Notes: generated from the sequence alone by a model not told the origin. 14,629 nt of DNA from Methanobacterium sp. (GCA_003166335.1 PMWA01000060.1:1-14629); one strand, 5' to 3'; counted from the first letter of the stretch, positions 1-14,629 are shown. A program made the numbers and translations.

Positions 1-2
1 CC

Positions 3-665
3 TTAGCTATTAGAATGGCTTTCGGAACTAGTCTAGCGGTTATTCTTCCCACAGCATTAAGCAGTGCTTATGGTCATCAGCGTAGACAAAATGTTATTTT
101 TAAAGCTGTATTATTTCTAGGTGTTTCAGGATTTCTGGGTGGATTAATAGGGGGTTATATAGCCACCCATCTTCCTGTGGACATATTGAAGACCATTTTT
201 GCTGTAGTGCTTTTATTAGTAGCGTTAAGAATGCTCTTATTTAAAGAACCTACAGAGGATACTACACGGGTGGATAATATTCCCTTATTCATATTATGGG
301 GTTTAATAGCGGGTATCATGTCTGGTCTTGTTGGTATTGGCGGTGCGGTGATTCTGATACCTGTGATGGTTTTAACTATGGGATTCAGTATGAAAGAAGC
401 AGGTGGAACTTCCAGTGCAGTTATTGTTTTAACTTCTCTGGGTGGAATTATATCCTACATCCTAAACGGTCTGCACACTCCGGGTTTACCACCCTATTCG
501 TTGGGTTATATAAATCTATTACAATTAGTGATTCTAGTTATATTCAGCATTCCCCTGGCACAAATTGGAGCATGGGCCTCTCATAAATTCCCTGAAAAAC
601 TTTTAAGATACATTTTTATCATTATATTAATATTTGTCTCATTGGAAATACTGGGAGTATTCTAA
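3..665 (+). CDS. Sulfite exporter TauE/SafE (TSUP) family membrane protein, 5'-truncated by the window edge
   Basis: Frame is open from base 3 (LAIRMAFGTSL...). Highly hydrophobic, with TSUP hallmarks 'A.GTSL', 'GLVGIGGAVILIP' and 'AGGTS' in the repeated half. Confidence 0.9.
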   Translation, partial: LAIRMAFGTSLAVILPTALSSAYGHQRRQNVIFKAVLFLGVSGFLGGLIGGYIATHLPVDILKTIFAVVLLLVALRMLLFKEPTEDTTRVDNIPLFILWGLIAGIMSGLVGIGGAVILIPVMVLTMGFSMKEAGGTSSAVIVLTSLGGIISYILNGLHTPGLPPYSLGYINLLQLVILVIFSIPLAQIGAWASHKFPEKLLRYIFIIILIFVSLEILGVF

Positions 666-743
666 TGACGTTTAATATTTCTACAAAAAATTAAGAATTT
701 TTTAATCTTTTATTAATGAATTTCAAATTTTGTGGGCCTTTTT

Positions 744-1367
744 TTAGTTTAAATCTTGTGAGTCTTGATTTATTATAATCATTTTGAGGTCGAATATCAT
801 AGCCCAGGCTTCTTCAACCTGTGGAGATGGATTCATTCCGTTAAGTTCAATGAACTTCTCCAAGCACTTAACAGCACCTTTATAATCTCCTAAAAATCGT
901 TTAACAGAACCTTTACCAGCCCAAGCCTTTGAATTTTCAGGATTTAACTCTAATGCCTTGTTAAAGCATTCCAATGCTTCCGAGTATTTTGAGAGATTAA
1001 AGAATGCAGTTCCCTTATTATTCCAAGCATCATCATTTTCAGTGTCAATTTCCAGTGCTTGATTAAAACAGTTTATAGCTTCAGTAAATCTTCCCATCGC
1101 TCCCAGAGAAACACCCATATTAATCCATGCTTTAGCATTATCCGGTTCTAAATCCAGTGCAATCTCAAAGGATTCAACAGCATCAGGATATCTCCCGGCT
1201 TTAGAAAGAGCCACTCCTCGATTATCCCATATCCTAGAGTTATCTTCATTTAACTCTAATGCTTTATCATAACAAAATACAGCAGCCCGGTATTCCCCAT
1301 CATTTAAATGAACATACCCCTGATATATCAATGATTTAACTTGCTGATTTTTATCTTTAGAATCCAC
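744..1367 (-). CDS. Tetratricopeptide repeat protein
   Basis: About five 34-aa TPR units (WDNRGVAL..A...F..AL..EP; WINMG; WNNKG; WAGKG). GTG start with AGGTGA ribosome-binding site upstream. Confidence 0.9.
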   Translation of the reverse strand: MDSKDKNQQVKSLIYQGYVHLNDGEYRAAVFCYDKALELNEDNSRIWDNRGVALSKAGRYPDAVESFEIALDLEPDNAKAWINMGVSLGAMGRFTEAINCFNQALEIDTENDDAWNNKGTAFFNLSKYSEALECFNKALELNPENSKAWAGKGSVKRFLGDYKGAVKCLEKFIELNGMNPSPQVEEAWAMIFDLKMIIINQDSQDLN

Positions 1368-1478
1368 TAAAATTCACCTATAAAAAATTTAAATTTATTC
1401 TATTATATTATTAGTTACCAATAATCCACTTCTTATAAAAAAAAATATTGTATTATATTTACCTTTTTTTAGATTCCT

Positions 1479-2138
1479 TTACCTATAACTATATCTCTCC
1501 TCTGTCCAGGGATCACCATGATTATGATAACCATGGGATTCCCAAAATCCACTTTTATCACTTTCTAAGAATTCCACACCAGTAACCCATTTAGCGCTCT
1601 TCCAGAAATATAGTTGAGGAACAACCAATCTAAGGGGATAACCGTGTTTAGTGCTTAATTCTTCTCCGTTATGATGAGTAGCAAATATTACGTCTTCTTT
1701 AAAGAATTCTTTAATAGGAAGATTAGTGGTAAAATTTTTATATGCATGTACCAGGACAAATTTAGCCTCAGATAGTACATTATCCTTCAAAAATGATGTG
1801 CTGACTCCTTCCCATAAATTATTTAATTTAGACCAGCTGGTTACGCAGTGAATATCTGAAAAAACCTTGGTTGATGGCAATAACCGGAATTCATCCAAGT
1901 TGTATTCTTTTTCTTCTTCAACCAATCCCCATACTTTAAAATTCCATTTGGTTAAATCAATTTTAGGCACCCGACCGGCCTGTAACACTGGCCACTTTTT
2001 AATTTCCCTCTGACCTGGTGGAACCCTAACATCTCTATTAGTATTCGGACTAATAATAACTTCTTCATTCTCTAAAACTGATTTAATATACTGGTCTTCC
2101 TCCTCATTATTACCAAAAAGATTTTTTAAAAATTTCAG
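1479..2138 (-). CDS. Sulfite oxidase-like molybdopterin-dependent oxidoreductase; probable CTG start at 2138 (track starts it at 1988)
   Basis: Motifs DIHCVTSWS (Mo-ligand Cys), HGYPLRLVVP.LYFWKSAKW and GFWE..GYH..GDPW.EERY. The conserved N-terminal 'RVPPGQ...WPVL' lies in frame upstream of 1988. SD-like AGGTGG sits 7 nt before CTG 2138. Confidence 0.88.
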   Translation of the reverse strand: MKFLKNLFGNNEEEDQYIKSVLENEEVIISPNTNRDVRVPPGQREIKKWPVLQAGRVPKIDLTKWNFKVWGLVEEEKEYNLDEFRLLPSTKVFSDIHCVTSWSKLNNLWEGVSTSFLKDNVLSEAKFVLVHAYKNFTTNLPIKEFFKEDVIFATHHNGEELSTKHGYPLRLVVPQLYFWKSAKWVTGVEFLESDKSGFWESHGYHNHGDPWTEERYSYR

Positions 2139-2327
2139 TTTCCTTCCACCTATTATATTAATTAAACTTAAAACTTTTTCTACAATGTTATATATACTGT
2201 TTAAAGTTTATTTAATTTTTTTACCACATTAAAAATGAAATCAAATTTTTTTTATTCCTTTGAATAATACTCTGATTCTGTAATTCTAAGGTTCATTACC
2301 TTTAGTTAAAAGAGTTACTGACAGAGA

Positions 2328-2336
2328 TTATATATA
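2328..2336 (+). promoter_or_regulatory. Putative TATA box of the metallophosphoesterase gene (likely leaderless or short-leader transcript)
   Basis: TTATATATA ends 23 nt before ATG 2360, and no SD motif precedes the ATG. Confidence 0.4.
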
Positions 2337-2359
2337 TTAAAAGATAAAAAATTAATACT

Positions 2360-3121
2360 ATGGGGAAACTGATAGAACTGCCAAAAAAAGGCAAAGCACT
2401 GATAATCACAGATATACATGGTAATCTAACCGATTTCAATAAATACATGAATATTTGGGATCAGTTCAAAAACAGAGATAACCATCTAATTCTTACCGGA
2501 GATTTTATCCATGCTATGGGCCGTGAAAACGATAGATCCATTGAAATCATGGAATCCGTACAATACCAGTGTGAAAACTCCGAAAATTTCCATGTTTTAC
2601 TGGGAAACCATGAATGGTCAACCATAACGAAAAAATCTGTTTATAAGGCAGGTATAAACCAAACACTCAATTTTGATGAACTCTTGAAAGATAATTTTGG
2701 TCAAAGTTACAATAAAGAACTAGAAGAATATGTGGAATTTCTTAAAAAACTTCCCATAGCAGTTAGAACAGCAAACAAAATTTTTATAAGTCATGCTGGA
2801 CCTCCCAGAAATATTAAAAGCTTAGATAAAATAAATCACATCACCGATAAAGGATACAACGAGAACCCACCATTATTCCAGATCCTGTGGAATAGATTTG
2901 AAGACTACACCGAAAATGATCTGAAATCTTTTCTAAAAACTGTGAACTGTAAAATGATGATTGTAGGTCACACACCAGTTGATGGAATTAAATTAGTATA
3001 TAAAAATCAACTAATAGTCTCATCCAGTTACAGTAAAGGAAAAAAAGCTTACGTTGAATTAAATCTTAAAGAAGATATAAAAAATAGTCAAAACCTCTTA
3101 AAAATGGTTAAATATCTATAA
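2360..3121 (+). CDS. Calcineurin-like metallophosphoesterase, possible Ser/Thr protein phosphatase
   Basis: Motifs DIHG, GDFIH, LLGNHE, SHAG and VGHT appear in the canonical order. The 3' end overlaps the convergent FHA gene by 6 nt (3116-3121). Confidence 0.88.
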   Translation: MGKLIELPKKGKALIITDIHGNLTDFNKYMNIWDQFKNRDNHLILTGDFIHAMGRENDRSIEIMESVQYQCENSENFHVLLGNHEWSTITKKSVYKAGINQTLNFDELLKDNFGQSYNKELEEYVEFLKKLPIAVRTANKIFISHAGPPRNIKSLDKINHITDKGYNENPPLFQILWNRFEDYTENDLKSFLKTVNCKMMIVGHTPVDGIKLVYKNQLIVSSSYSKGKKAYVELNLKEDIKNSQNLLKMVKYL

Positions 3122-3673
3122 TTGACCCACCTTATTATATTTAATATGCAGGGATTTAGCTACAACAATTTCATCCCCATCATTTAGCCTGTACTTCTTG
3201 GATCCATGTAATTCTTCTCCATTTAAAGTAGTACCATTTTTAGTTTTAAGATCTTGTAGGAAAAAACAGCATAAATAACAACAGTCCTTCTTAGTGATCT
3301 TAAAATGATCTCTTCCTATAAAATAAAGTTCATCTGAAGGGATTACTCCTAAAAAATCCTCTCTACCCATAATTTTTTCAGCATCTTTAACAATTATATT
3401 GTTATTATTTGGAAGAATTAATTTAGCCACTGTTCCACTATTATCAGCACACTGAGTCTGAGTAGTCTTTAAAATCTTAGATTGAGGTGATAATTTCTTA
3501 TAAATAAATTCTATTAAAAATCCAGCTATTATAGCCATTATCAAAGCTAAAACAATTTCCTGAGTTTGATTCTGAAGCAAACCGAAAATACCATTTAATT
3601 TCCAAATCACAGTTGCAAAAGCACCTACAATCAACATCATCACTATGAGACCAATAAGTTGCTTTCTAGACAT
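3116..3673 (-). CDS. Membrane-anchored FHA domain protein (2 N-terminal TM helices)
   Basis: Two hydrophobic segments, then FHA motifs MGREDF, IGRDHF, QDLKTKNGTTLNG and L.DGDEI. Confidence 0.85.
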   Translation of the reverse strand: MSRKQLIGLIVMMLIVGAFATVIWKLNGIFGLLQNQTQEIVLALIMAIIAGFLIEFIYKKLSPQSKILKTTQTQCADNSGTVAKLILPNNNNIIVKDAEKIMGREDFLGVIPSDELYFIGRDHFKITKKDCCYLCCFFLQDLKTKNGTTLNGEELHGSKKYRLNDGDEIVVAKSLHIKYNKVGQL

Positions 3674-3813
3674 TTAAACTCAACCGGTTTTATTAAAAAT
3701 GATTTTATTTCAAATTTATTTCATAATATATAAAGATTTTATTCTAAACCTTTCTAATAGGAAATCTTATTCCACCCAAATAAAACAAAAAAATTCTAAT
3801 TTTATATGAAATA

Positions 3814-5586
3814 TCATTTTTTCAATTTTTTCATAACCATCGTATATCCTTGACGATATCCACTGCGATATCCATCTCTGTAAAGTTTTAGACATTCTTT
3901 TTCCTTAAATTCTTCTAAACAATCCTTCTTAGCAGCTTCATATCCCTCTTCATAAAGATCTTCAACTTGTGGGTGAGATAAAATCATTGTTAAGAATTGT
4001 TTATTTATAATTTCTTGGGATGTTTTATCTGATTTTACCGCATTTGAAGGTATATTATCTGATTTAACTACATCTGAAGGCATTTTATCTGATAAATATG
4101 GATCTTCAACGTTTTTAGGCTGGAATCCAACACCCATTTCCGCTTTCATCAAATCTGTGGAATCACTGATAGAAGCCACCTTCACCAAAGACTTATCACC
4201 TTCATAAGACTTACTGTTCGGGGTGGATTCATCATCAAAAATTCTATTATTAGTTCTACCAGGGAAAGGATCCCCTTCATCACCAGCTAAGTCTTTCTGT
4301 ACTTTATCAACATCCTCTTCCTTAAGCAATACAGTCATATCCCTTTGAAGATCCTCTCTTCCATCAGATTCCTTTACTGTAAGGAAAAAATGCTGTGGAT
4401 TGTAGTTAGGAGCCTCTAAAACGCATACGCTCTCATCAACATGCCAAATCATAAGACCACTAGCAGGTAAATTCTGTTCAAATCCCTTCTGTTGACGGTT
4501 TTCCAATAGAAAATACTCTTCACCATCAGAACCATCAACCTCTAGTTTGTAAATATCTTTATCAGAATCCATCACCGCTGATATTTCATAGGGATTAGGG
4601 ATTTCTTTTAAAATCTTCGGTTTAATCCAGCCCAGATGCATCTTACACCAGGCGCAGGGATGGGCGGGTGTTCTACCATTGTCAATATGATCACCGATAG
4701 CCATTAAACACCAGCTTCCCACCACTGGAGAATAACCTTCCTTATATAGGTCTGGTAATCCCAGAAAATGCCCTACTTCATGACAGAAACAGCCTAGATC
4801 ATCCGCAGGAAGTTCTGGTATCAAGCAATATCTTTTGGCATATATTCCTTCTTGTACTTCAATGGGTTCTGCTAATCTATCCTTGTGAGGTCGTATATAA
4901 TTAATATTAAGTTTGGTATCTAATCCTTCACCAGCATATATCACTATCAGGATTTCAATTTCCCCATCCTTAGCAATTTTTGAAAAATCAAAACTACCAC
5001 TATCTTTAGCCTGTAAAACAACTTCTGAAATCAGATTTTGAGCTTTTGGGAAATGTCCATCAATCTCATACTTATCAACGTAATCTGATAAGTTATTTGC
5101 TGCTGAAAACCATTCGTTGTTGACTTCTCCATTTATGTCAAGCTGATTCCAGGAGGCTTCTGAATAATAGTCCCTCATACTATGGTTAGAGCCTTTAGAA
5201 AAGAGTAAATCTTTAAAATAGTCGGGTTTAATGGAATGTTTTCTGTCTTTAAATTCTGTTAAAAGAACCAGAGCGTTTTTAGTGCCGACAACCGGGTCTA
5301 TTTTTTTACAGGGACCCGTGGAAATGGGAGCAGCTTTTAAAGAACCATATTTAGTAATAATTTCCTGTTTACGATCTTCCATTCTCTGTTCCAGATTCTG
5401 CCAATTCTGCTGCAGTACATTATAAGTTTCCAGATCCAACCCACCCCTCGACTCGAATTCCGCTGGATCTACTCCTTTCTGGAGTAAATTTTTGGTTTGT
5501 ATTATCTTTGCATATACTGAAGGACGAAGATGCCTTTCCTGAGAATTTTCACCATTATTTTTTAAAAACAATTCATAAACCCCCAC
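3814..5586 (-). CDS. M6 family (immune inhibitor A-like) zinc metalloprotease with a C-terminal GYxxGYxxGY helix; no evident signal peptide
   Basis: Metzincin motif HEVGHFLGLPDLY, Met-turn WCLMAIG, and M6 motifs SMRDYY.E.S, PAHPCAWCK..LGW, EYFLLENRQ..GF and GLMIWHVDE. GTG start. Confidence 0.9.
   Translation of the reverse strand: MGVYELFLKNNGENSQERHLRPSVYAKIIQTKNLLQKGVDPAEFESRGGLDLETYNVLQQNWQNLEQRMEDRKQEIITKYGSLKAAPISTGPCKKIDPVVGTKNALVLLTEFKDRKHSIKPDYFKDLLFSKGSNHSMRDYYSEASWNQLDINGEVNNEWFSAANNLSDYVDKYEIDGHFPKAQNLISEVVLQAKDSGSFDFSKIAKDGEIEILIVIYAGEGLDTKLNINYIRPHKDRLAEPIEVQEGIYAKRYCLIPELPADDLGCFCHEVGHFLGLPDLYKEGYSPVVGSWCLMAIGDHIDNGRTPAHPCAWCKMHLGWIKPKILKEIPNPYEISAVMDSDKDIYKLEVDGSDGEEYFLLENRQQKGFEQNLPASGLMIWHVDESVCVLEAPNYNPQHFFLTVKESDGREDLQRDMTVLLKEEDVDKVQKDLAGDEGDPFPGRTNNRIFDDESTPNSKSYEGDKSLVKVASISDSTDLMKAEMGVGFQPKNVEDPYLSDKMPSDVVKSDNIPSNAVKSDKTSQEIINKQFLTMILSHPQVEDLYEEGYEAAKKDCLEEFKEKECLKLYRDGYRSGYRQGYTMVMKKLKK
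4021..4093. repeat. 30-bp in-frame tandem repeat (about 2.4 copies) in the protease linker
   Basis: tgttttatctgattttaccgcatttgaagg / tatattatctgatttaactacatctgaagg / cattttatctgat, encoding SDKMPSDVVK-SDNIPSNAVK-SDKT. Confidence 0.85.
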
Positions 5587-5589
5587 TTC

Positions 5590-5630
5590 TAAATGATTTA
5601 TAGTTATTTACATGTACTATAAATTATTTA
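5590..5630. promoter_or_regulatory. Inverted repeat (15-bp arms, 14/15 match, 11-nt spacer) directly upstream of the protease start
   Basis: taaatgatttatagt (5590-5604) pairs with actataaattattta (5616-5630). It contains a minus-strand TTTATA TATA-like element. Confidence 0.45.
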
Positions 5631-5683
5631 TTATTTCAATGCTTTTTTTGAATTAAATAAATATTTTTTTGGATGAAATGTAG

Positions 5684-5697
5684 TAATTACGTAATTA
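5684..5697. promoter_or_regulatory. Perfect 14-bp palindrome in the divergent intergenic region; candidate operator
   Basis: TAATTACGTAATTA lies roughly midway between the protease start (5586) and the small-protein start (5788). Confidence 0.35.
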
Positions 5698-5787
5698 ATA
5701 TTCATAATATTAAGTATTAAAGAATAAAAACGAAAAATTTAATACTTTAAACTTTTAAATTAAATGTCAATTAAAAGGGGGATTTAG

Positions 5788-6039
5788 ATGGAAGAAAAAA
5801 AATCTAGAAAAGAAGAATATCTGGAAGGATATGAAGATGCAAAGCAAGATTGTATCGATAAAATGAAAGATGAAAAGTGTGTGGAAAGTTATGTAGATGG
5901 ATATAAAGCCGGTTATAGTGATGGTTATAAATCTGCTATGGAAGATATGAAAAATATGATGGGGCAAATAACACCAGAAACAAAGCAAAAATTGATGGAA
6001 GAAGGGGGAGCTCAGCCTCAATGGGGATGGCCTTGGTAA
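5788..6039 (+). CDS. 83-aa protein homologous to the M6 protease C-terminal helix, with a GG|AQPQWGWPW tail; candidate peptide precursor or protease partner
   Basis: G-rich RBS (aagggggatttagATG). Residues 11-55 align without gaps to the protease C-terminus with 21/45 identities, which supports it being a real gene. Confidence 0.85.
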   Translation: MEEKKSRKEEYLEGYEDAKQDCIDKMKDEKCVESYVDGYKAGYSDGYKSAMEDMKNMMGQITPETKQKLMEEGGAQPQWGWPW

Positions 6040-6269
6040 TTAGTTTACCTTTTAAGGATTTATGATTAAAATAAATTAAATAGATTTGTATTTGTAATTG
6101 TAATGGAAAATATGTCAAAGTCTAGAGTGTATAATCTAAGAATCTTAAGAGAGAGCTAAAAATTAATCTAGTAATCATTGAATCAATTATTGCCCGGATT
6201 TACTTTTCATTACAAAATTATATTTCTTTATAAAACTTCATCATTTGTGTGAAATGAGGGGTAATTTAA

Positions 6270-8525
6270 ATTTTAAAATCTAACAAATTTAAAATTTTTT
6301 TTATTATTACTTTATTTATATTACCATTATTCCTATCCTTAAATCTTGTTTCTGCTCAAGATAATACTAATAATAATACTAAAGTCTTATTTGATGAAAC
6401 ACGTCCAGATCTAGGAACATTATACACTATTTATAATATGGGAACGTACGGATCATCCAGTTTTGCAACTCTACTAGAACAAAATGGTTATAGTGTTTCC
6501 CGGTTAACAAACGGACCAATCACCCCTGAAAAACTGAATGGATATAATGTTTTAGTACTTATGGCCCCATATGGTAATTACACTGATGCTGAAGTTAATA
6601 CAATTAAGGAATTTGTAAACAACGGTGGTGGACTATTTTTAGTTGGGACTAACTGGGGTGATGTAGATGGTAATCAGAGTTTTGCAATCAATAAAATTGC
6701 GGAAAGTTTTGGGGTAAATTTTGCAAATAATTCAATAGTTACTGATGACCAAAATAATATTTTTGCTCCTACTTTCGTGACTATCAACAATCTTACACCA
6801 AATCCCATAACCACAAACGTTTCTTCGTTTTATTATCTCCAGGGAACTTACATAGAAAATCCCGGACCATCTAATGTTGTTGCTTATACAAGCGCTAATG
6901 CATGGGGTGATCAAGGTTTTACCACCCCCCAAGGAACTACAGCAAGTAACAGTATCAAAGATCCTGATGAAACAGGTGGTCCTCTATCCGTAATTTCTGA
7001 AATGAATTATGGAAAAGGGAAAATAGTTTTCATGGGTGCTGCTGGATCTTTTATTAATGCAATGATTTATAGGAGCGATACCTGGAAATTAGAATTAAAT
7101 ACTGTAAATTGGCTGGCTAATCGCCCTGCGCCAACTAACTACCAACCTGCCGGGTTGATCTCCTTAAATTTATTAGGATACCAAATTGTGGGAATGATTC
7201 TATTATCTTTGATATTATTTTCAGGATTATTTATTAAAATTAGAAGGGATAAGAAATTAGGGGATCCGCAGACATTTAAAACCATTAAAAATTGGAAATT
7301 TAATGCTTTAATAGTAACCAATGCATTTTTTGGTGTTCTAGCTGGTATCCTGTTTATTCCAATCAATTTTTTCTTATATAATATTACATTATTCTCAGTT
7401 TACGATCCTAATTTAGGTTATACACTGATAATAACCGGAGCATTATTTTTGTTCTTTATAGGGGTGATATTATTCAACCTTATCGCCCGACAAAGGATGT
7501 TGGTGAAATATTCCTATTACACAATTGTCCTAATCCTCTTTTTTGCTGGTTTAACAGTTATTTTAGGGGACATATTTAGTTTCCCCTTAATGCAGATATT
7601 CACTTTTGGTAGTTTGATTCTTTTAATTCCCTTTGCCCTTAATATATGGATCCACAGAAATTATGGATCCAATCTGATTATTGAAGGTAAAGAATTTGAT
7701 CGGCTGAAAAAATTATCAAGTAAATCGTTACCTTATGAGCTTCAACCATTTTTTACTGATTCAGCTTATATGGGAGAAGGTGGATTTGGACGAGTTTTCA
7801 AAGCCATTAATAAAAAAGGTGAACAAGTAGCTTTGAAAATACCAAAGAGTTTTGATAAAAGGTCTGAGAGAACATTTATCACTGAGGTGTCCAATTGGAG
7901 TCATTTAGATCATCCTAACATTGTAAAACTAATTGGATATAAAATTCTCCCTATTCCGTATATTGAAACAGAGTTCTGTGAAGGAAAGTTAGAGAAAGGT
8001 ATGAAATCTCTCCAAGAGGCTGTATCAATAGTGTATGAAATTGCGAAAGGATTAGAATATGCACATAATAAAAACATCATTCATGGAGATGTAAAAATCT
8101 CTAATATTCTCATAAAAAATGGAGTTTACAAAATATCCGATTGGGGTTTAAGTAAACTAAAAATTGATGAATCAGTGACATTATCAGGTGCAACACCTTC
8201 TTATGCAGCTCCCGAGCAGATATCTCAAGAATTTGGTAAAGCTGATGAAAGAACCGATATTTATCAACTGGGTAATGTTTTTTATGAACTTTTAACGGGC
8301 AGATTACCATTTGAAGGTGATATATCACAGATTTACAGTTCCATACTCACCACTCAACCCATACAACCTGCAGAAATAAATTCCAACTCACAGCCTGTAA
8401 ATGATATTATCATGAAATGTCTAAACAAAAATAAAAATAGCCGATATTCCTCTATGGGAGAATTGATTAAAGAATTAGAGAAATATAGACCTGCTGATAA
8501 AACATTAATGTTTAAAAACAGTTAA
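6270..8525 (+). CDS. Receptor-like membrane Ser/Thr (Hanks-type) protein kinase: signal peptide, extracellular DUF4350/GldG-like alpha/beta domain, about 6 TM helices, kinase domain. Start uncertain (track gives 6438)
   Basis: Kinase motifs GEGGFGRV, VALK, HGDVKISNIL, DWG, YAAPEQ and DIYQLG. The frame is open from 6270 and encodes KSNKFK + hydrophobic stretch + VSA|QD and 'KVLFDETR' before Met 6438. The extracellular domain family is my recognition, not a search result. Confidence 0.88.
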   Translation: MLKSNKFKIFFIITLFILPLFLSLNLVSAQDNTNNNTKVLFDETRPDLGTLYTIYNMGTYGSSSFATLLEQNGYSVSRLTNGPITPEKLNGYNVLVLMAPYGNYTDAEVNTIKEFVNNGGGLFLVGTNWGDVDGNQSFAINKIAESFGVNFANNSIVTDDQNNIFAPTFVTINNLTPNPITTNVSSFYYLQGTYIENPGPSNVVAYTSANAWGDQGFTTPQGTTASNSIKDPDETGGPLSVISEMNYGKGKIVFMGAAGSFINAMIYRSDTWKLELNTVNWLANRPAPTNYQPAGLISLNLLGYQIVGMILLSLILFSGLFIKIRRDKKLGDPQTFKTIKNWKFNALIVTNAFFGVLAGILFIPINFFLYNITLFSVYDPNLGYTLIITGALFLFFIGVILFNLIARQRMLVKYSYYTIVLILFFAGLTVILGDIFSFPLMQIFTFGSLILLIPFALNIWIHRNYGSNLIIEGKEFDRLKKLSSKSLPYELQPFFTDSAYMGEGGFGRVFKAINKKGEQVALKIPKSFDKRSERTFITEVSNWSHLDHPNIVKLIGYKILPIPYIETEFCEGKLEKGMKSLQEAVSIVYEIAKGLEYAHNKNIIHGDVKISNILIKNGVYKISDWGLSKLKIDESVTLSGATPSYAAPEQISQEFGKADERTDIYQLGNVFYELLTGRLPFEGDISQIYSSILTTQPIQPAEINSNSQPVNDIIMKCLNKNKNSRYSSMGELIKELEKYRPADKTLMFKNS

Positions 8526-8565
8526 TTAAAAAAGTCAATTAATAAGAACTAGGGGAACGGTCTGA

Positions 8566-8979
8566 TTGGGAATGAACCTGAATAAAGGCGTAATTCTAGG
8601 AATTGCTGGTGCTATTACTGTTTTTATTTTTATTCTAATAATTATTTTATATATTGATTCAGATTTTGATCAACAATTAATTTATCAAGTGGATAGTGGA
8701 GTGCCTGCTGATAAATTGATCCCTCAAATTGATAAAGAAACTGAAGAACTACAGATGAATGCATTAAAAAGTTACGAATCTAATGTTATAAATAACAATC
8801 TGGGAGGAAATGCTAGTAATTATGATTATTATACACAAGTGTATCAAAATGAGAATAAAACTATTTCAGAATATGAAAATACTCAGAAAGAATTTGCTAA
8901 TCGGGAGATAAGCAAAGAACAATTTGAACAGGATATTAAATCACCAAAAGAATTTATACAACTAATGAATTTAAATTGA
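8566..8979 (+). CDS. Hypothetical protein with one N-terminal TM anchor and a helical N/Q/E-rich soluble part
   Basis: 137-aa ORF 40 nt after the kinase, with AGGGGA RBS upstream. The start may be TTG 8566 or ATG 8572. Confidence 0.75.
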   Translation: MGMNLNKGVILGIAGAITVFIFILIIILYIDSDFDQQLIYQVDSGVPADKLIPQIDKETEELQMNALKSYESNVINNNLGGNASNYDYYTQVYQNENKTISEYENTQKEFANREISKEQFEQDIKSPKEFIQLMNLN

Positions 8980-9046
8980 CAATTAATATTTAAAAATTAA
9001 TACTTTACTAACATTTTTATTTTATGACCTGTTATGGAGATTTATT

Positions 9047-10303
9047 ATGGAAATATTTATTGATGTGGGAGGAAAACCCGGCATAGAATGTGGTGGTTTC
9101 TGTGAGTTTTGTTTTTATAAAAAAGTGGATTTTAAAAAATTAGAATCACTCTCCATAGGATGTATAAATTGTCCACCCAACCAGATCGGATGTGATTATT
9201 GCCATAACACAGTTACAAGAGTAAAAAATGATTTTAAACCTCTTTCTCAAGTTTTAAATGACTTTAAAGAAAAATTTAATAAACATTTACGAGCAGGTTC
9301 GTTAAATTATAAAGAACTAAATGTTATCATAGGTGCGGGTGCTGACGTATTCAACTATCCACACTTATACGAACTTGTTTCAACATTAAAAGAGTATGAA
9401 TTACGATTACATTTAGGTTATACTAGTGGAAAACCAATAGATAATGACCATATGGCCGAAAATCTTATTTCATTAGGAGTTGATGAAATAAGCTTTTCTG
9501 TGTTTTCAACAGATCCTGAAAAGAGAAGAAAGTGGATGAATGACAATACTCCTCAGAAGTCACTTGAAGGTTTAAAGATATTTTGTGAAAATATTGATGT
9601 TAACGCCTCTGTTGTAGTTATTCCCGGAGTAAATGACAAAGAAGAACTATTCCAAACCTGTGTCAACATGGAAGAATGGGGTTTAAAATCGTTCGTTTTA
9701 AGGAGATTCGCTAATTTTAAAAATCAGGGTTTAATATTGAACAACAAACCCATAATAGAAGGAGTAAATCCTCTATCGTATGAAGAGTTCCAAGAATTAG
9801 TGCGTGAAGTAGCTCGCGAATTCTCTTTCAAAGTTTTAGGATACCCCTTTTGTGACCCCCAAAATGATTTTCCCTTCGCGATCTCGAGAGTTAAAAATAG
9901 GGATTATCTGGAGAAATTACCGGATATTAAATCTGAAGCTACCATTATAACGAGTAAGTTAGCTGCACCTTATTTAGAGAGGATATTTGGGGTAATTGAT
10001 GAATTTAATTTGGTTAATATTGTTAGTGTGGATAAAGATATTGCTGATTTGATTACTCATGAAGATTTGGAGTCTGTTAATCTAGGTAATGTCAAGAGAA
10101 ACGTCATTATTCCGAGTGGAGCATTGGTTCATGATAAAAAGGCTGAAGAGATTTTAAATAAGGATGGTAAAGTTAGATTAGTTGTTAGAGGTCCTTATGT
10201 GTTAACAAATCCATATTACAGGGATGAATTTTATAAAGAAGAATTATTAAACTTTGAATTAAATTCTTTTACAGCTTTAATAGATAAAATCAATTCATTT
10301 TAA
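9047..10303 (+). CDS. mmp10: Mmp10-family (methanogenesis marker 10) cobalamin-dependent radical SAM methyltransferase; divergent, probably a paralog
   Basis: N-terminal DVGGKPG..CGGFCEFC (CX3CX2C), iron-loop CINC..GCDYC, HLGYTSGK, RFANF..QGLILNN.PII, KDIADLIT and VRGP all match the Mmp10 family. GGAGA RBS upstream. Confidence 0.85.
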   Translation: MEIFIDVGGKPGIECGGFCEFCFYKKVDFKKLESLSIGCINCPPNQIGCDYCHNTVTRVKNDFKPLSQVLNDFKEKFNKHLRAGSLNYKELNVIIGAGADVFNYPHLYELVSTLKEYELRLHLGYTSGKPIDNDHMAENLISLGVDEISFSVFSTDPEKRRKWMNDNTPQKSLEGLKIFCENIDVNASVVVIPGVNDKEELFQTCVNMEEWGLKSFVLRRFANFKNQGLILNNKPIIEGVNPLSYEEFQELVREVAREFSFKVLGYPFCDPQNDFPFAISRVKNRDYLEKLPDIKSEATIITSKLAAPYLERIFGVIDEFNLVNIVSVDKDIADLITHEDLESVNLGNVKRNVIIPSGALVHDKKAEEILNKDGKVRLVVRGPYVLTNPYYRDEFYKEELLNFELNSFTALIDKINSF

Positions 10304-11086: not shown

Positions 11087-11440
11087 ATGACTATTAAAAT
11101 CAAAAGAGCATACCAGGATTCAAGTAAAAATGATGGCTTCAGAATCCTTGTGGATAGGTTATGGCCTCGTGGAGTAACTAAGGAAAAGGTAAAATTGGAT
11201 TTATGGATGAAAGAAATCGCTCCATCCAATGATTTACGCAAATGGTTCAATCACGAGCCAAGAAAGTGGAATGAATTCCAAATTAAATATAATGAAGAAT
11301 TAAAAGAAAAAAAAGAATTAATTACACAGCTAAAAGATATAGAAAATGAAAAGAAAATCATCACATTAGTTTACGCGGCTAAAGATGAAAAACATAACAA
11401 TGCAGTAGTAATTAGGGATGCATTAAAAAAATTAGAATAA
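11087..11440 (+). CDS. DUF488 (YeaO-like) family protein
   Basis: Motifs IKRAY...[30 protein letters not shown] and [14 protein letters not shown]. Confidence 0.9.
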
Positions 11441-11492
11441 TAATTATAGTATTTTTTTTTTAAATCAAAAAAAAATGTGGATGGAAATTATT

Positions 11493-11891
11493 ATGAGTGG
11501 AAATCTTTATGATTATCTTAAAAAAGAACACATGGAAGTATTGGAACTCTTTCGTATAACATTGGATCAGAAAATTCAATCATACTATCCTGAGATTAAA
11601 GAAAAACTTTACAAACATATGGATAACGAGGAGAAATATTTATATCCATCATTAGAGGTATTTGATAAAATTACAATACTTGAAGGATATGAAGAACACG
11701 CAATAGCTAAGAGATTAATCAATGATTTAGATTTACGTGATCAATACGATGAGAAATGGGTTGCTAAAGCTAAAGTATTAAATGAAATCATCAAGCATCA
11801 CATTAAAGAAGAAGAAACATATATCTTCAAAATCGCTGAAAAAATATTAAATAAAGATGATGAACTAAAAATCTTAAACCAAATACAATAA
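11493..11891 (+). CDS. Hemerythrin-like (HHE) domain protein; start at 11493 or 11475
   Basis: Motifs LKKEH, HMDNEEKYLYP, EEH and HHIKEEETYIF. Confidence 0.85.
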   Translation: MSGNLYDYLKKEHMEVLELFRITLDQKIQSYYPEIKEKLYKHMDNEEKYLYPSLEVFDKITILEGYEEHAIAKRLINDLDLRDQYDEKWVAKAKVLNEIIKHHIKEEETYIFKIAEKILNKDDELKILNQIQ

Positions 11892-11929
11892 ATAAACTTT
11901 TTTTCTTTTTTAATCAAATATTAATTACT

Positions 11930-13123
11930 TTAAAATACTGGAATTAAACCATTATTAATCCCTGTAATACACTCTCCACCATGAGAAGTGACTATGAAAG
12001 TGTTTTCAATTCCCACCATTCCAATATCACGAATACCCTTCTTAGGTTCCACAGCAAACACCATCCCCTCCTTTAATGGCTCGTTAAATCCTTCTGCAAT
12101 TACAGGCAGTTCATCAATTAATAAACCAATCCCATGACCGAGGAAATTAACTCTTCGATTACCAAAACCCATGAAATTTCGAAGAAAATCCTTATCAAGA
12201 TTTTCCATTATTATCCTATAAATATCTGAAGGAATAACACCAGGTTTTAACATAGCCGCAATTTCATTCTGAACAGCCACACATTCATAATGAATATCAA
12301 TAGCATACTGGGGAAGGGAATGACCAAACATGTAAGTCATGGTTTTATCTGTATTATAACCTTCAACTCCACATCCCACATCAATAAAAACTAGATCACC
12401 ATTTCTTAATTTCCGATCACGACTACCCAATAGAGGTACCGCTGGACTCAATCCATAATTCCCCCCAGGTCCGTTAAAATACGTGGGATAAATTGAACTT
12501 TCACCAAAACCCAATTGTCCCAGGACTATCTCCGTATCAAACATGCCAAAACGGGTTACTCCATCATGCCCCTCCTCCACCATAACCTGGAAAAGTTCTG
12601 CAACCAGACTTGCTTCACTCATTCCCACCTGTAACATTTCCTGAGCCAGATCTTCCAATACGTGCTGATGAATCTTACCCGCTTCTCTCATCAATGATAA
12701 TTCATATTCACTTTTAACTGCCCTAACCTTGGCTATAACATTATCAACAGGTTTAAAATTCTTAAATGGAAAATATTTATGGAATCTATGATATAAAGCA
12801 AGTGGAATTACTTCAGTTTCCAAATATATTGTATCTGGAAGTTGATTTTGACTTTCCGCTGCATCATGGAAACTATTCATAGGTTTAATTACCCTGAATA
12901 ATGATTCATCCAAAGCCCTTTCATAACTACGCCGCACCCAAAAAATAGGCTCATCATCATGGTTAATTATGATTATGCCCTCCTGCATCGTGCCAGTGAA
13001 ATAATAAAGGTTAATTTTACTGAAAATAACCGCCATCTTCCATTCTGGATTCATATTATCCATTACTGTTTTAAATCGTTTCATACGATTATCCAATTCA
13101 GTTAAAGGAGTTTTTTTAATCAT
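11930..13123 (-). CDS. Xaa-Pro aminopeptidase/prolidase-like M24 family peptidase
   Basis: Creatinase-like N-domain (NLYYFTG), R.VKS.YE linker, and all five metal ligands: IDVG, YNTDKT, GHGIG, VEPK and GIEN. Confidence 0.9.
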
Positions 13124-13505
13124 TTAAAACGGGCCTCATTTAATAAATTTTTTAACTAAATCTGTGAGTATATATTTAATTGAATATAACTAAATTATTT
13201 AACTCAAATAAAAAAAAATATTTTCATTAAAATATATTAATTTTATGGAAATTTTCTAAGTTAATTCCTTTTTAAGGAGGGATAGGTTTTTTATAAAAAA
13301 ACATCATATGATTTAATATAAGAACATGATAATATGAATAAAAAGAATGTTTTAATTGAATCTTTTATATAAATTAAAGAATAATTTTGTATATTCTTGT
13401 ATTAATTTGAAATATCCTTACATGGAGTTTATTTTAAATATTTTTACAGAAAATTAAAAAGTTTAATATATAATTAGAATTTTCTTATTTAGGAGTTGAA
13501 ATAGT

Positions 13506-13610
13506 ATGGCAAAAGTATCAGGAACTAACAAAAGAACTAGACAAAAGAAGAATTATGTTAAACCGGGAAGTAAGAGAGGACGAGGAGTTAAAAAATCAAA
13601 AGTTAAATAA
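13506..13610 (+). CDS. Small highly basic protein, 34 aa (MAKVSGTNKRTRQKKNYVKPGSKRGRGVKKSKVK); not in the ORF track
   Basis: AGGAG RBS at 13491-13495, ATG 13506, TAA 13608-13610, and a TATA-like ttaatatata upstream. 14/34 residues are K or R, with no acidic residues. Confidence 0.7.
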   Translation: MAKVSGTNKRTRQKKNYVKPGSKRGRGVKKSKVK

Positions 13611-13674
13611 TGGGAAAGAACTTAAACTAAAATCTTTTTCCTTAAAAAAAAATAGTCAAAAAAAATGAATGATT

Positions 13675-13697
13675 AAAAAAAAAAAATATTTTTTTTT
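13675..13697. terminator. A12-TA-T9 tract between convergent genes; candidate bidirectional oligo-T terminator
   Basis: Gives a T-run on each strand between the 34-aa ORF and the 13696-13989 ORF. Confidence 0.35.
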
Positions 13698-13989
13698 ATA
13701 CTTCACTTTCTAGGCATAAATTACTTTCGTTTATTGGAATTTTCCAAAGATATCCTACTTTTTTGGGTTTTATTTTTTTATTTTTCCCTTTCTTGTTTTC
13801 TAAGTTAGCTTCACTTCCATCCCATGTTTTCACGGTTTTGTTTAGATATTGTGCTATTTTTTCATTATATTTTCTCGTTCCAATGGTGTAGCTATCGCCT
13901 TCATTAAGAATATAGCTAATTCCATCACCATTTTCACCGATTATCTTTGAGATTTCTACAATTTTTTTGGAGAAGGTTATAGACATCAT
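13696..13989 (-). CDS. Hypothetical protein, 97 aa
   Basis: Protein-like composition and higher GC than the flanks. No recognisable motif and no clear RBS. Confidence 0.5.
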   Translation of the reverse strand: MMSITFSKKIVEISKIIGENGDGISYILNEGDSYTIGTRKYNEKIAQYLNKTVKTWDGSEANLENKKGKNKKIKPKKVGYLWKIPINESNLCLESEV

Positions 13990-14407
13990 AGTTTTCTTAT
14001 TACTCTTTTTTTTTAATAGATAATATATTAGATTTTCAATAAAGTATTATTATAAAATAAAAAATTAAATAACTAAATTTATAAATGAATATTAAATTTT
14101 CTCAACAAAAAAAACATATTTCAATAAGCATGTCCTATAATTTGTTGTTATAATTATTATAAATATTTCTTCATATAAAAAACCTTCGATATAAAAAACA
14201 CTTATAAAATTCAATAATAATCATCCGTTCTAAAAAATAATAGAATATTTAATATATTTTGTAAAAAAACAATTTATACACTACAAATCTGTTAAATTAA
14301 AATAATTCAATAGAATTTATTTACTCGTTTTTTACATTACTTTATATGCTCTTAACATCAATACTAAATTAGACCATTATTTTGGTCATAAATTGGAAGT
14401 GATAAAT

Positions 14408-14629
14408 TTGTTTGGAAATTACAGTAATGATAAGAAAAGTAATAGAGGCGGCAGTAATTCTCCTATTAATGAAGGAGAGGAATACGATGTTAAAATTGAA
14501 GACACTGGTAGAGATGGGGATGGAATCACACGTATAGAAGGTTTCGTTGTATTTGTCTCAGGTGCTAAAGTAGGCGATGAAGTTAAAATTAGAATTAATT
14601 CTACTAGAAGAAATTTTGCTTTTGCAGAA
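14408..14629 (+). CDS. Stand-alone TRAM domain protein (archaeal RNA chaperone), 3'-truncated by the window edge; not in the ORF track
   Basis: TTG 14408 follows GGAAGTGA and translates to [74 protein letters not shown], a classic TRAM pattern. Confidence 0.92.

Follow-up and report, generated by a model that had tools for sequence, protein, structure and literature searches.

In bacteria, kinases, FHA proteins and phosphatases act in sets such as PknB-PstP-FhaA/B of Mycobacterium and PpkA-PppA-Fha1 of Pseudomonas, while Ser/Thr signalling in methanogens is, to our knowledge, almost unstudied. A phospho-network of ArnA, ArnB, ArnC and ArnD has been described in Sulfolobales (PMC5007285; PMC12852372; statements on these and all papers cited below refer to the parts of their text that were available). 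Here we analyzed positions 2,360 to 10,303 of a 14,629-nucleotide (nt) stretch of DNA from Methanobacterium sp. (GCA_003166335.1, PMWA01000060.1:1-14629), the whole of which is called the window. On balance, this locus is probably a transmembrane module for Ser/Thr phospho-signalling that is dispensable and confined to one lineage, the Methanobacterium-type Methanobacteriaceae. Its constant core consists of a receptor kinase, a membrane protein of 137 residues (mem137) and a small protein of 83 residues with repeats of Gly followed by three residues (GX3) and a Pro/Trp tail; its usual companions are a transmembrane (TM) FHA protein, a phosphatase resembling PP1 and an M6 protease of the cytoplasm with a GX3 domain. 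As in the bacterial Hanks/FHA/phosphatase sets and the Arn network, a membrane Hanks-type kinase with an outer sensor is co-encoded with an FHA protein and a Ser/Thr phosphatase. The module differs from those sets in its methanogen host, its DUF4350-type ectodomain, its five TM helices and the PPP type (PP1-like) of its phosphatase, and in the addition of an M6 protease, the GX3/Trp-tail protein and a radical S-adenosylmethionine (SAM) methyltransferase. It offers a compact, tractable example with sensor, reader, eraser and candidate outputs. The genes and elements are, in order along the window:

2360..3121, plus strand: PPP-like (PP1-like) metallophosphoesterase (Pfam Metallophos, 67 bits)
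3116..3673, minus strand: TM-FHA protein (Pfam FHA, 39.3 bits; 2 TM segments)
3814..5586, minus strand: M6-family zinc metalloprotease (TIGR03296, 160.4 bits)
3820..3954, minus strand: C-terminal GX3-repeat domain of the M6 protease, residues 545-589 (BLASTP against the 83-residue protein)
5788..6039, plus strand: small GX3/Trp-tail protein, 83 residues (family alignment)
6010-6036, plus strand: Pro/Trp tail AQPQWGWPW at the C-terminal end of the 83-residue protein
6256..6262, plus strand: probable ribosome-binding site (RBS) GAGGGGT for the kinase, 7 nt before ATT 6270 (read from the sequence)
6270..8525, plus strand: receptor Ser/Thr kinase with revised, probable start (open frame, orthologue N-termini; the ATG-based open reading frame (ORF) is 6438-8525)
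8566..8979, plus strand: mem137, bitopic membrane protein of 137 residues (30-member alignment, AlphaFold2 model)
9047..10303, plus strand: kinase-linked Mmp10 paralogue, radical SAM protein (TIGR03278, 492.1 bits)

All seven ORFs lay where the original prediction, made by reading the DNA without database searches, had placed them. The kinase, mem137 and radical SAM genes are indeed co-oriented, with gaps of 40 and 67 nt when recomputed from the ORF coordinates, and Pfam and NCBIfam scans bore out the phosphoesterase, FHA, M6, kinase and Mmp10-type domain assignments.

The prediction had proposed a comparison of gene neighbourhoods and had counted homologues lying apart in other genomes against itself; the comparison went the other way, and the genes were found together in 49 kinase loci from 10 genera (49 fetched stretches plus the window, minus L057, which has no kinase). 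mem137 was present in 45 of the 49 loci, a second family included, and the small protein in 42. The M6 protease was found in 39, with three of the ten misses at contig ends. The Mmp10 paralogue was found in 29; two loci could not be resolved at contig ends, and it was absent from 18 of the 47 that could. The paralogue-bearing loci (about 60% of those resolvable) carry one to three tandem copies. The phosphatase was detected in 26 loci and the FHA protein in 24, sometimes in two copies, the latter having been lost in L009, L010 and L012; several component misses fall at contig ends. At least four gene orders were observed, with flanks mostly unrelated between genera. Order A, that of the window, runs phosphatase, FHA, M6, small protein, kinase, mem137 and paralogue, and order B runs M6, small protein, kinase, mem137 and zero to two paralogues. 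Order C is kinase, FHA, small protein, M6, FHA, mem137 and phosphatase. In order D, which has no M6, a phosphatase and FHA gene are followed by a membrane protein with pentapeptide repeats, a small protein whose last residues are '...PWWP', a second FHA protein, kinase, mem137 and paralogue; the pentapeptide-repeat protein takes the place of M6 in loci L060-L063.

These arrangements bear on the idea that the genes form no functional unit and are neighbours only through the gene order shared by close genomes, which we regard as extremely improbable. The flanking genes (TauE, TPR, Mo-oxidoreductase, M24 peptidase and TRAM) are syntenic too in the window's genus, as the idea would require, and within-genus synteny therefore proves little. 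However, other genera keep the module genes together in differing orders and orientations while the flanks change, and the flanking genes are tied to the module only inside the window's genus and in L041. Tight genome-wide co-occurrence of kinase and small protein and the joint loss of components also speak against chance neighbourhood. Among 328 genomes of the order, the small-protein profile matched 46, from one family and nine genera, and the kinase was found in 49, from the same nine genera with two decayed copies in a second family. Both were present in 41 genomes, the kinase alone in 8, the small protein alone in 5 (three of them weak matches) and neither in 274. As for joint decay, a single deletion in G002 extends from M6 to the paralogue, and G016 has remnants only. 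Of the module, the second-family loci L017 and L018 retain just the phosphatase, a broken kinase, FHA and mem137.

Two side observations belong to these loci. In L017 (11182-11980) and L018 (11362-11997), neither of which has a radical SAM paralogue, a class I SAM-dependent methyltransferase-like gene lies between FHA and mem137 and is split in L017. Genome G138 carries two modules of different order (L041 and L058); in the one of order A, the paralogue is frameshifted and the M6 gene is split.

The original prediction of a receptor-like Hanks kinase held, but the start it gave did not, since the frame is open for a further 56 codons 5' of ATG 6438 and the added stretch encodes a signal peptide, followed by 'VLFDET...YTIYN.G.YG'. 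Kinase orthologues start at the equivalent place with ATG (L005, L007, L015, L016) or TTG (L009, L011, L013), and those of the second family have a Met and a signal peptide at the N-terminus. In the window, G004 and G012, the sole start candidate is an ATT located 6-7 nt after a strong AGGGGT RBS. Based on the orthologue starts and this RBS-ATT layout, we placed the start at position 6270, so that the kinase probably begins with a non-canonical ATT. An out-of-frame ATG is located nearby, at window position 6254.

The resulting protein consists of the signal peptide, a DUF4350/GIFT-like ectodomain of about 270 residues (DUF4350, 50 bits), five TM helices and a Hanks kinase domain (Pkinase, 152.6 bits; cut-off 31.7). 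Hanks kinases are recognized by a Gly loop, the Lys of VAxK, an HxD...N catalytic loop, a DFG-like motif and APE, and the complete set is present here as GEGGFGRV, VALK, HGDVKISN, DWG and APE. A search with the ectodomain and TM region returned 113 protein clusters that make up a closed family; scores drop from about 400 bits to 76 bits outside it. All named clusters are from Methanobacterium or Methanobacteriaceae-type metagenome-assembled genomes, bar one labelled Methanothermobacter and one labelled Methanomicrobiales. Widening the kinase search to the phylum, which held one more genome than the order set, gave zero new matches. In the databases the module proteins are named 'DUF4350 domain-containing protein', 'protein kinase', 'immune inhibitor A', 'methanogenesis marker radical SAM protein' and 'PP1 catalytic subunit', and no description of the kinase module in methanogens was found in the literature searched, including the available text of PMC5007285, subscription journals and supplements lying outside the scope. 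Genome G075 carries, besides a full module, two tandem kinase paralogues (G075:C4:1052612-1055382) with about 43% identity to residues 251-685, and thus without the ectodomain.

The kinase domain resembles those of the PADLOC models mad6 (188 bits) and PD-T4-6 (up to 159 bits) and reaches 108 bits with NCBIfam MADS6, under its cut-off of 460. This likeness raises the alternative of a conflict or defence system engaged in an arms race, in which the kinase would trigger the protease and methylase as effectors on infection. We consider it very unlikely. PADLOC matched only the generic catalytic domain (442-688), the other six proteins had no match, and no nuclease, NTPase or other typical effector is encoded. 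The restriction to 49 of 328 genomes, many with broken copies, and the tandem expansion of the paralogues would fit an arms race, yet the chromosomal context is conserved within the genus, and the signal peptide and large ectodomain speak for a sensing role on the outer side of the cell.

The writer, reader and eraser roles that had been proposed for the kinase, FHA protein and phosphoesterase appear reasonable, given the full kinase motifs, an FHA domain that passes its Pfam threshold and the PP1-like relatives of the phosphatase. In the FHA protein, a probable phospho-Thr reader, residues 6-24 and 40-58 are TM-like and residues 117-170 form the C-terminal FHA domain (39.3 bits against a gathering score of 20.7). 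FHA domains contact phospho-Thr through Gly-Arg, Ser-x-x-His and Asn. As read by eye, Gly-Arg and 'NGT..NG' are present, while the Ser of S-x-x-H appears to be Gly (IGRDH). Residues ~128-140 of the protein, within the FHA domain, form a Cys-rich segment, 'KKDCCYLCCFFLQDL', where the second-family orthologue in L017 has 'RMDDGFYIEDL'. For the phosphoesterase, all 42 sequence matches in the PDB were PPP-type, mostly PP1, though weak (best E 9e-7). The motifs of PPP phosphatases are GDxHG, GDxxDRG and GNHE, and here they read TDIHG, GDFIHAMG and GNHE, with an atypical second motif. The protein has no TM segment and is a probable cytoplasmic phospho-Ser/Thr eraser.

mem137 is encoded directly behind the kinase gene. 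In an alignment of 30 members, the motif SDFDxQLI is invariant, and the AlphaFold2 model is confident (mean predicted local distance difference test score 85.3) and shows a TM helix at the N-terminus together with a bundle of three helices. From the charge distribution round the TM helix, the bundle probably lies outside the cell. No Pfam or NCBIfam family matched mem137; its atlas scores were at most 0.79, and Foldseek against the PDB returned generic helical bundles only, none at E <=0.001. The start codon of its gene is regularly a weak one, being TTG in the window and, as called by script, in 27 of the 32 orthologues (4 ATG, 1 GTG).

The M6 protease scored 160.4 bits with TIGR03296 (against 110.8) and 51 bits with PF05547 (against 22), and the HExxH residues H269, E270 and H273 are invariant in 18 orthologues. 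It shares the M6 catalytic domain and invariant HExxH with InhA/M6 metallopeptidases, and differs from InhA in having no signal peptide and in carrying a C-terminal GX3 domain shared with the neighbouring small protein. That the two proteins have a domain in common, as first noticed from the DNA, was confirmed by BLASTP: M6 residues 545-589 and the N-terminal part of the small protein are 47% identical over 45 residues (21/45, E 5e-13). All M6 orthologues with an intact C-terminus have the GX3 domain and never the Trp tail, and a hidden Markov model of the small protein matched the M6 C-termini at profile positions ~1-51. The topology scan agreed with the earlier statement that neither the small protein nor M6 has a signal peptide; it detected no TM or signal segment in these two, the phosphoesterase or the radical SAM protein.

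In 24 aligned members, the small protein consists of a GX3 or GY-repeat core (EGYKxGYRDGYKAAM), a variable linker, given as PPEI(K/R)xQMEEG for the window protein, and a terminal Pro/Trp tail with variants such as WGWPW, GWWWPW, WFRWWPW and GWLPWW. D45, G46 and W83 do not vary at all, and W79 hardly does. The two Cys of the shared GX3 domain are not conserved family-wide; they occur in both partners or in neither at 16 of 17 loci, perhaps in three independent lineages, a pattern that gives a weak hint of co-evolution of the two domains and not proof. That the M6 C-terminus and the small protein undergo gene conversion was also considered and rejected, since same-locus pairs are not systematically the closest (ranks 1-15).

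Short Gly-x3 repeat helices common to two partners are reminiscent of the Yae1-Lto1 deca-GX3 adaptors and the GxxxG of FliH, and Lto1 docks via a C-terminal Trp. Compared with these, the small protein is archaeal, has 83 residues and is paired with a protease. No Pfam family passed for it. Yae1_N (PF09811) was the commonest weak match, sub-threshold in 7 of 12 members, with E 0.0014 for the best member and 13.5 bits for the window protein against a gathering score of 27.5. NCBIfam FliH models matched weakly (E 6e-4). As all these matches are far under gathering scores, the small protein is not a member of the Yae1_N or FliH family. Its profile gave only chance-level matches against solved structures. 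Sharing a domain with the neighbouring protease, it is a candidate for a kind of adaptor or decoy that is undescribed in archaea in the literature searched.

At L009, a second small-protein gene (6746-6970) lies between two paralogue copies. In the M6-less loci L061 (7028-8104), L062 (12847-13929) and L060 (10250-11329), a protein of about 358 residues is found instead, whose N-terminus is rich in Cys and which has pentapeptide-like repeats and, at the C-terminus, TM helices; it adjoins a small protein ending '...PWWP' ('...RPFW' in L060).

Mmp10 has hitherto been regarded as a 'methanogenesis marker' with one purpose, the modification of one arginine in the enzyme that forms methane, MCR (methyl-coenzyme M reductase). 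The window protein resembles Mmp10 of Methanosarcina acetivorans (PDB 7QBS, TIGR03278) over its full length (phmmer E 6.5e-90), and it passes the Mmp10 equivalog model as originally predicted (492.1 bits, cut-off 350). It is not, however, the housekeeping Mmp10 but a surplus paralogue with an altered substrate pocket. The genome holds two Mmp10 homologues, which are 51% identical. The housekeeping copy (643.6 bits) is located at G000:C79:5743-6993, divergent to the adjoining mcrBDCGA with mtrE downstream, whereas the paralogue lies in the kinase operon and not beside mcr. An mcr-adjacent position is typical of the Mmp10 orthologue (bioRxiv 10.1101/211441). The full order in that neighbourhood (L019, G000:C79, 3642-12585) is methanogenesis marker 7, a YaeI-like phosphodiesterase, mmp10 (divergent), mcrBDCGA and mtrE.

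In a tree of 37 Mmp10 sequences, the 18 kinase-linked copies formed one clade (Shimodaira-Hasegawa-like approximate likelihood-ratio test support 100, stem length 0.68) whose branches far exceed in length those of the 19 canonical sequences. The tree was built by a quick method and rooted on a single out-of-order sequence, with the truncated G002 copy (341 residues) left out. Extra copies were also counted across the order: 41 genomes had at least two Mmp10 matches (E <=1e-30), 32 of them kinase-positive. Two of the nine kinase-negative ones are the decayed G002 and G015, and in the others (G087, G102, G118, G192, G200, G222, G279) the extra matches may be split genes or contaminants, judging from E-values and contamination. 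All 34 sequenced extra copies are located in kinase loci.

Structural work on Mmp10 identified as strictly or highly conserved the radical SAM cluster residues Cys15, Cys19 and Cys22 (CxxxCxxC), the four Cys of the iron loop, and the residues Tyr115 and Leu322; the guanidinium group of the arginine to be modified is bound by Glu378, which also hydrogen-bonds and switches Tyr115 (PMC8828468). We aligned both genome copies to 7QBS_A, a chain with a 25-residue tag. The window copy keeps all cofactor residues, while 'LT-NPYYR' replaces the enzyme's 'SVDGEMS' and a Tyr stands at the E378 position. The seven Cys are kept in all 18 paralogues of the first set and in all 15 full-length later ones, and Y115 and L322 in all 16 later copies and the window copy. 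As these cluster and iron-loop Cys, Tyr115 and Leu322 are all kept, the paralogue probably retains the B12 radical methylation chemistry. Glu occupies the E378 position in none of 34 paralogues and in all 19 canonical copies; in the first 18 it has given way to Tyr (nine), Phe (three), His, Ile, Val or Thr (once each) or a gap (two). C326 is Asp in 34/34, and R350->G, G91->A and Y21->F are found in 18/18 of the first set, with G350 and A91 in 14 of the 16 later paralogues and F21 in all 15 whose sequence spans this position. A 4-residue insertion follows the cluster motif, and of the 133 columns invariant in canonical Mmp10, 64 persist in 17 or all 18 of the paralogues. In a library of 1.84 billion representative proteins, the Mmp10 family had 111 representatives at E <=0.001, among which both the canonical and the paralogue signatures recur together with a few odd lineages, such as the metagenomic P0008, without equivalents of Tyr115 and Glu378, and P0004, with S326, V350 and A-D-Y.

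The loss of E378 across the clade implies a rebuilt substrate pocket and a new substrate. A clade with intact chemistry, a rebuilt pocket and constant linkage to a kinase would mean that the Mmp10 family has at least one other substrate, and since the equivalog model passes such paralogues (492 bits), current annotation over-calls Mmp10. On the present alignments, the kinase-linked paralogues are a previously undescribed Mmp10 subfamily. The literature searched (again outside subscription journals and supplements) yielded no account of Mmp10 paralogues whose substrate residues are changed, and the available text of PMC8828468, PMC11659888, PMC12667266 and bioRxiv 10.1101/211441 makes no mention of Mmp10 paralogues, 'MMP10..' in PMC12667266 being locus tags.

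It is quite unlikely that the paralogue acts on MCR at another residue or under other conditions, with the kinase module serving as a regulator of methanogenesis. McrA is the only known substrate of the family (PMC8828468), MCRs bear several methylated residues according to published abstracts, and the paralogue does pass the equivalog model at 492 bits. But mcrA occurs only once in the genome and has an Mmp10 of its own adjoining it, every paralogue of observed position is in a kinase locus and not an mcr locus, most Methanobacteriales genomes have one Mmp10 copy, and the substrate clamp has been rewritten along with invariant residues next to it. No McrA-like 'RRAR' target loop was detected in any module protein, and the McrA peptide that we take to be the housekeeping substrate is 'LPVRRARGENEPGG'. 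A second MCR isoenzyme with its own Mmp10 was ruled out separately, there being one mcrA only.

The paralogue could also be read, together with the protease and the small protein, as part of a pathway for a ribosomally synthesized and post-translationally modified peptide (RiPP), as first suggested. Small protein, protease and methyltransferase are co-encoded here as in RiPP clusters with B12 radical SAM C-methyltransferases such as thiostrepton TsrM (PMC11659888). Here the GX3 leader would recruit M6, the paralogues would C-methylate a Pro/Trp core, and the released Trp-rich peptide would be sensed by the kinase. The extreme C-terminal Pro/Trp tail is the small protein's most conserved feature across genera, and in the paralogues the cofactor sites are kept while the 'DGE' clamp has turned into Pro and aromatics (9 Tyr and 3 Phe of 18), suiting a hydrophobic or aromatic side chain. 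The one to three tandem copies and the small-protein gene between two of them in L009 would fit as well, given that multi-methylated RiPPs use several B12 radical SAM enzymes. TsrM, moreover, is a precedent for a B12 radical SAM enzyme that methylates Trp, at C2 (PMC11659888). However, the tail is conserved with or without the paralogue, missing from 18 of 47 loci, and with or without M6, not found in 10 of 49, so that protease and methyltransferase are optional. The module further differs from RiPP clusters in that neither exporter or transporter nor recognition-element protein was seen in the annotated loci, precursor and protease have no signal peptides, and the would-be 'leader' has its homologue in a domain of the protease itself, a feature that we know from no RiPP. 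Protease, precursor and radical SAM enzyme, as originally proposed, are thus not borne out as a fixed RiPP unit by the distribution of the parts, and we judge the RiPP-like pathway unlikely, though it is the boldest reading.

Returning to the phospho-signalling module, we infer the following course of events. The ectodomain, perhaps with mem137, would sense an envelope or external cue, and the kinase would autophosphorylate on Thr; the FHA protein would dock on the phospho-Thr, and the phosphatase would reset the system. Output may run via the small protein, pairing with the protease by the shared GX3 helix as adaptor, decoy or substrate, with the Trp tail as a docking or membrane-interface element. 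The Mmp10 paralogues would C-methylate a substrate other than the McrA arginine, most likely a module protein or peptide. A more specific version, to which we give little credence, is that they C-methylate the Trp tail, one to three enzymes giving one to three methyls, and that the tail or peptide, cleaved by M6 or still attached, is the kinase signal or switch. If true, the paralogues would be the first Mmp10-family members with a non-MCR substrate, in a RiPP-like signalling circuit in methanogens.

Several observations weigh against this signalling module. The co-occurrence counts overstate the support, since related genomes are not independent. Phosphatase and FHA are each found in about half of the loci (the counts refer to the loci and not to the rest of the genomes), and M6 and the paralogue vary independently, which indicates that neither is essential to the core. 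The kinase is split or has stops in G004, G006, G016, G026, G032, G083, G100 and G111; such frequent breakage fits a dispensable function, and part of the copies may have no activity. Neither Ser nor Thr nor Cys is conserved in the family alignment of the small protein, which, lacking the first two, is no obvious kinase substrate. The loss of E378 removes the canonical arginine clamp and does not reveal the identity of the substrate, and Asp326 could in principle bind a basic residue. Finally, the RNA data give no more than a hint of expression of the seven genes, as they consist of contigs, which show neither strand nor transcript ends and may reflect DNA carry-over.

The window was seen in peat metatranscriptome assemblies, and four runs from three studies cover all seven genes; in each of these runs, most window-matching contigs are at least 99% identical. 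A single RNA contig (5542-6728) spans the 5' end of M6, the small protein and the 5' end of the kinase. Two others (8139-9123 and 8501-9249) connect the kinase, mem137 and the paralogue, and one (2302-3382) covers the phosphatase and FHA. The top public RNA-library sources of the window are all peat metatranscriptomes (20 runs from 17 studies listed).

Rfam and tRNA scans of the whole window gave no match. In the flanks (window 1-2000 and 11087-14629) we identified genes for a TauE/SafE exporter, a TPR protein, a molybdopterin oxidoreductase domain protein and a DUF488 protein, and further genes for a hemerythrin, an M24 peptidase, a 97-residue ORF without a family and a TRAM-domain protein.

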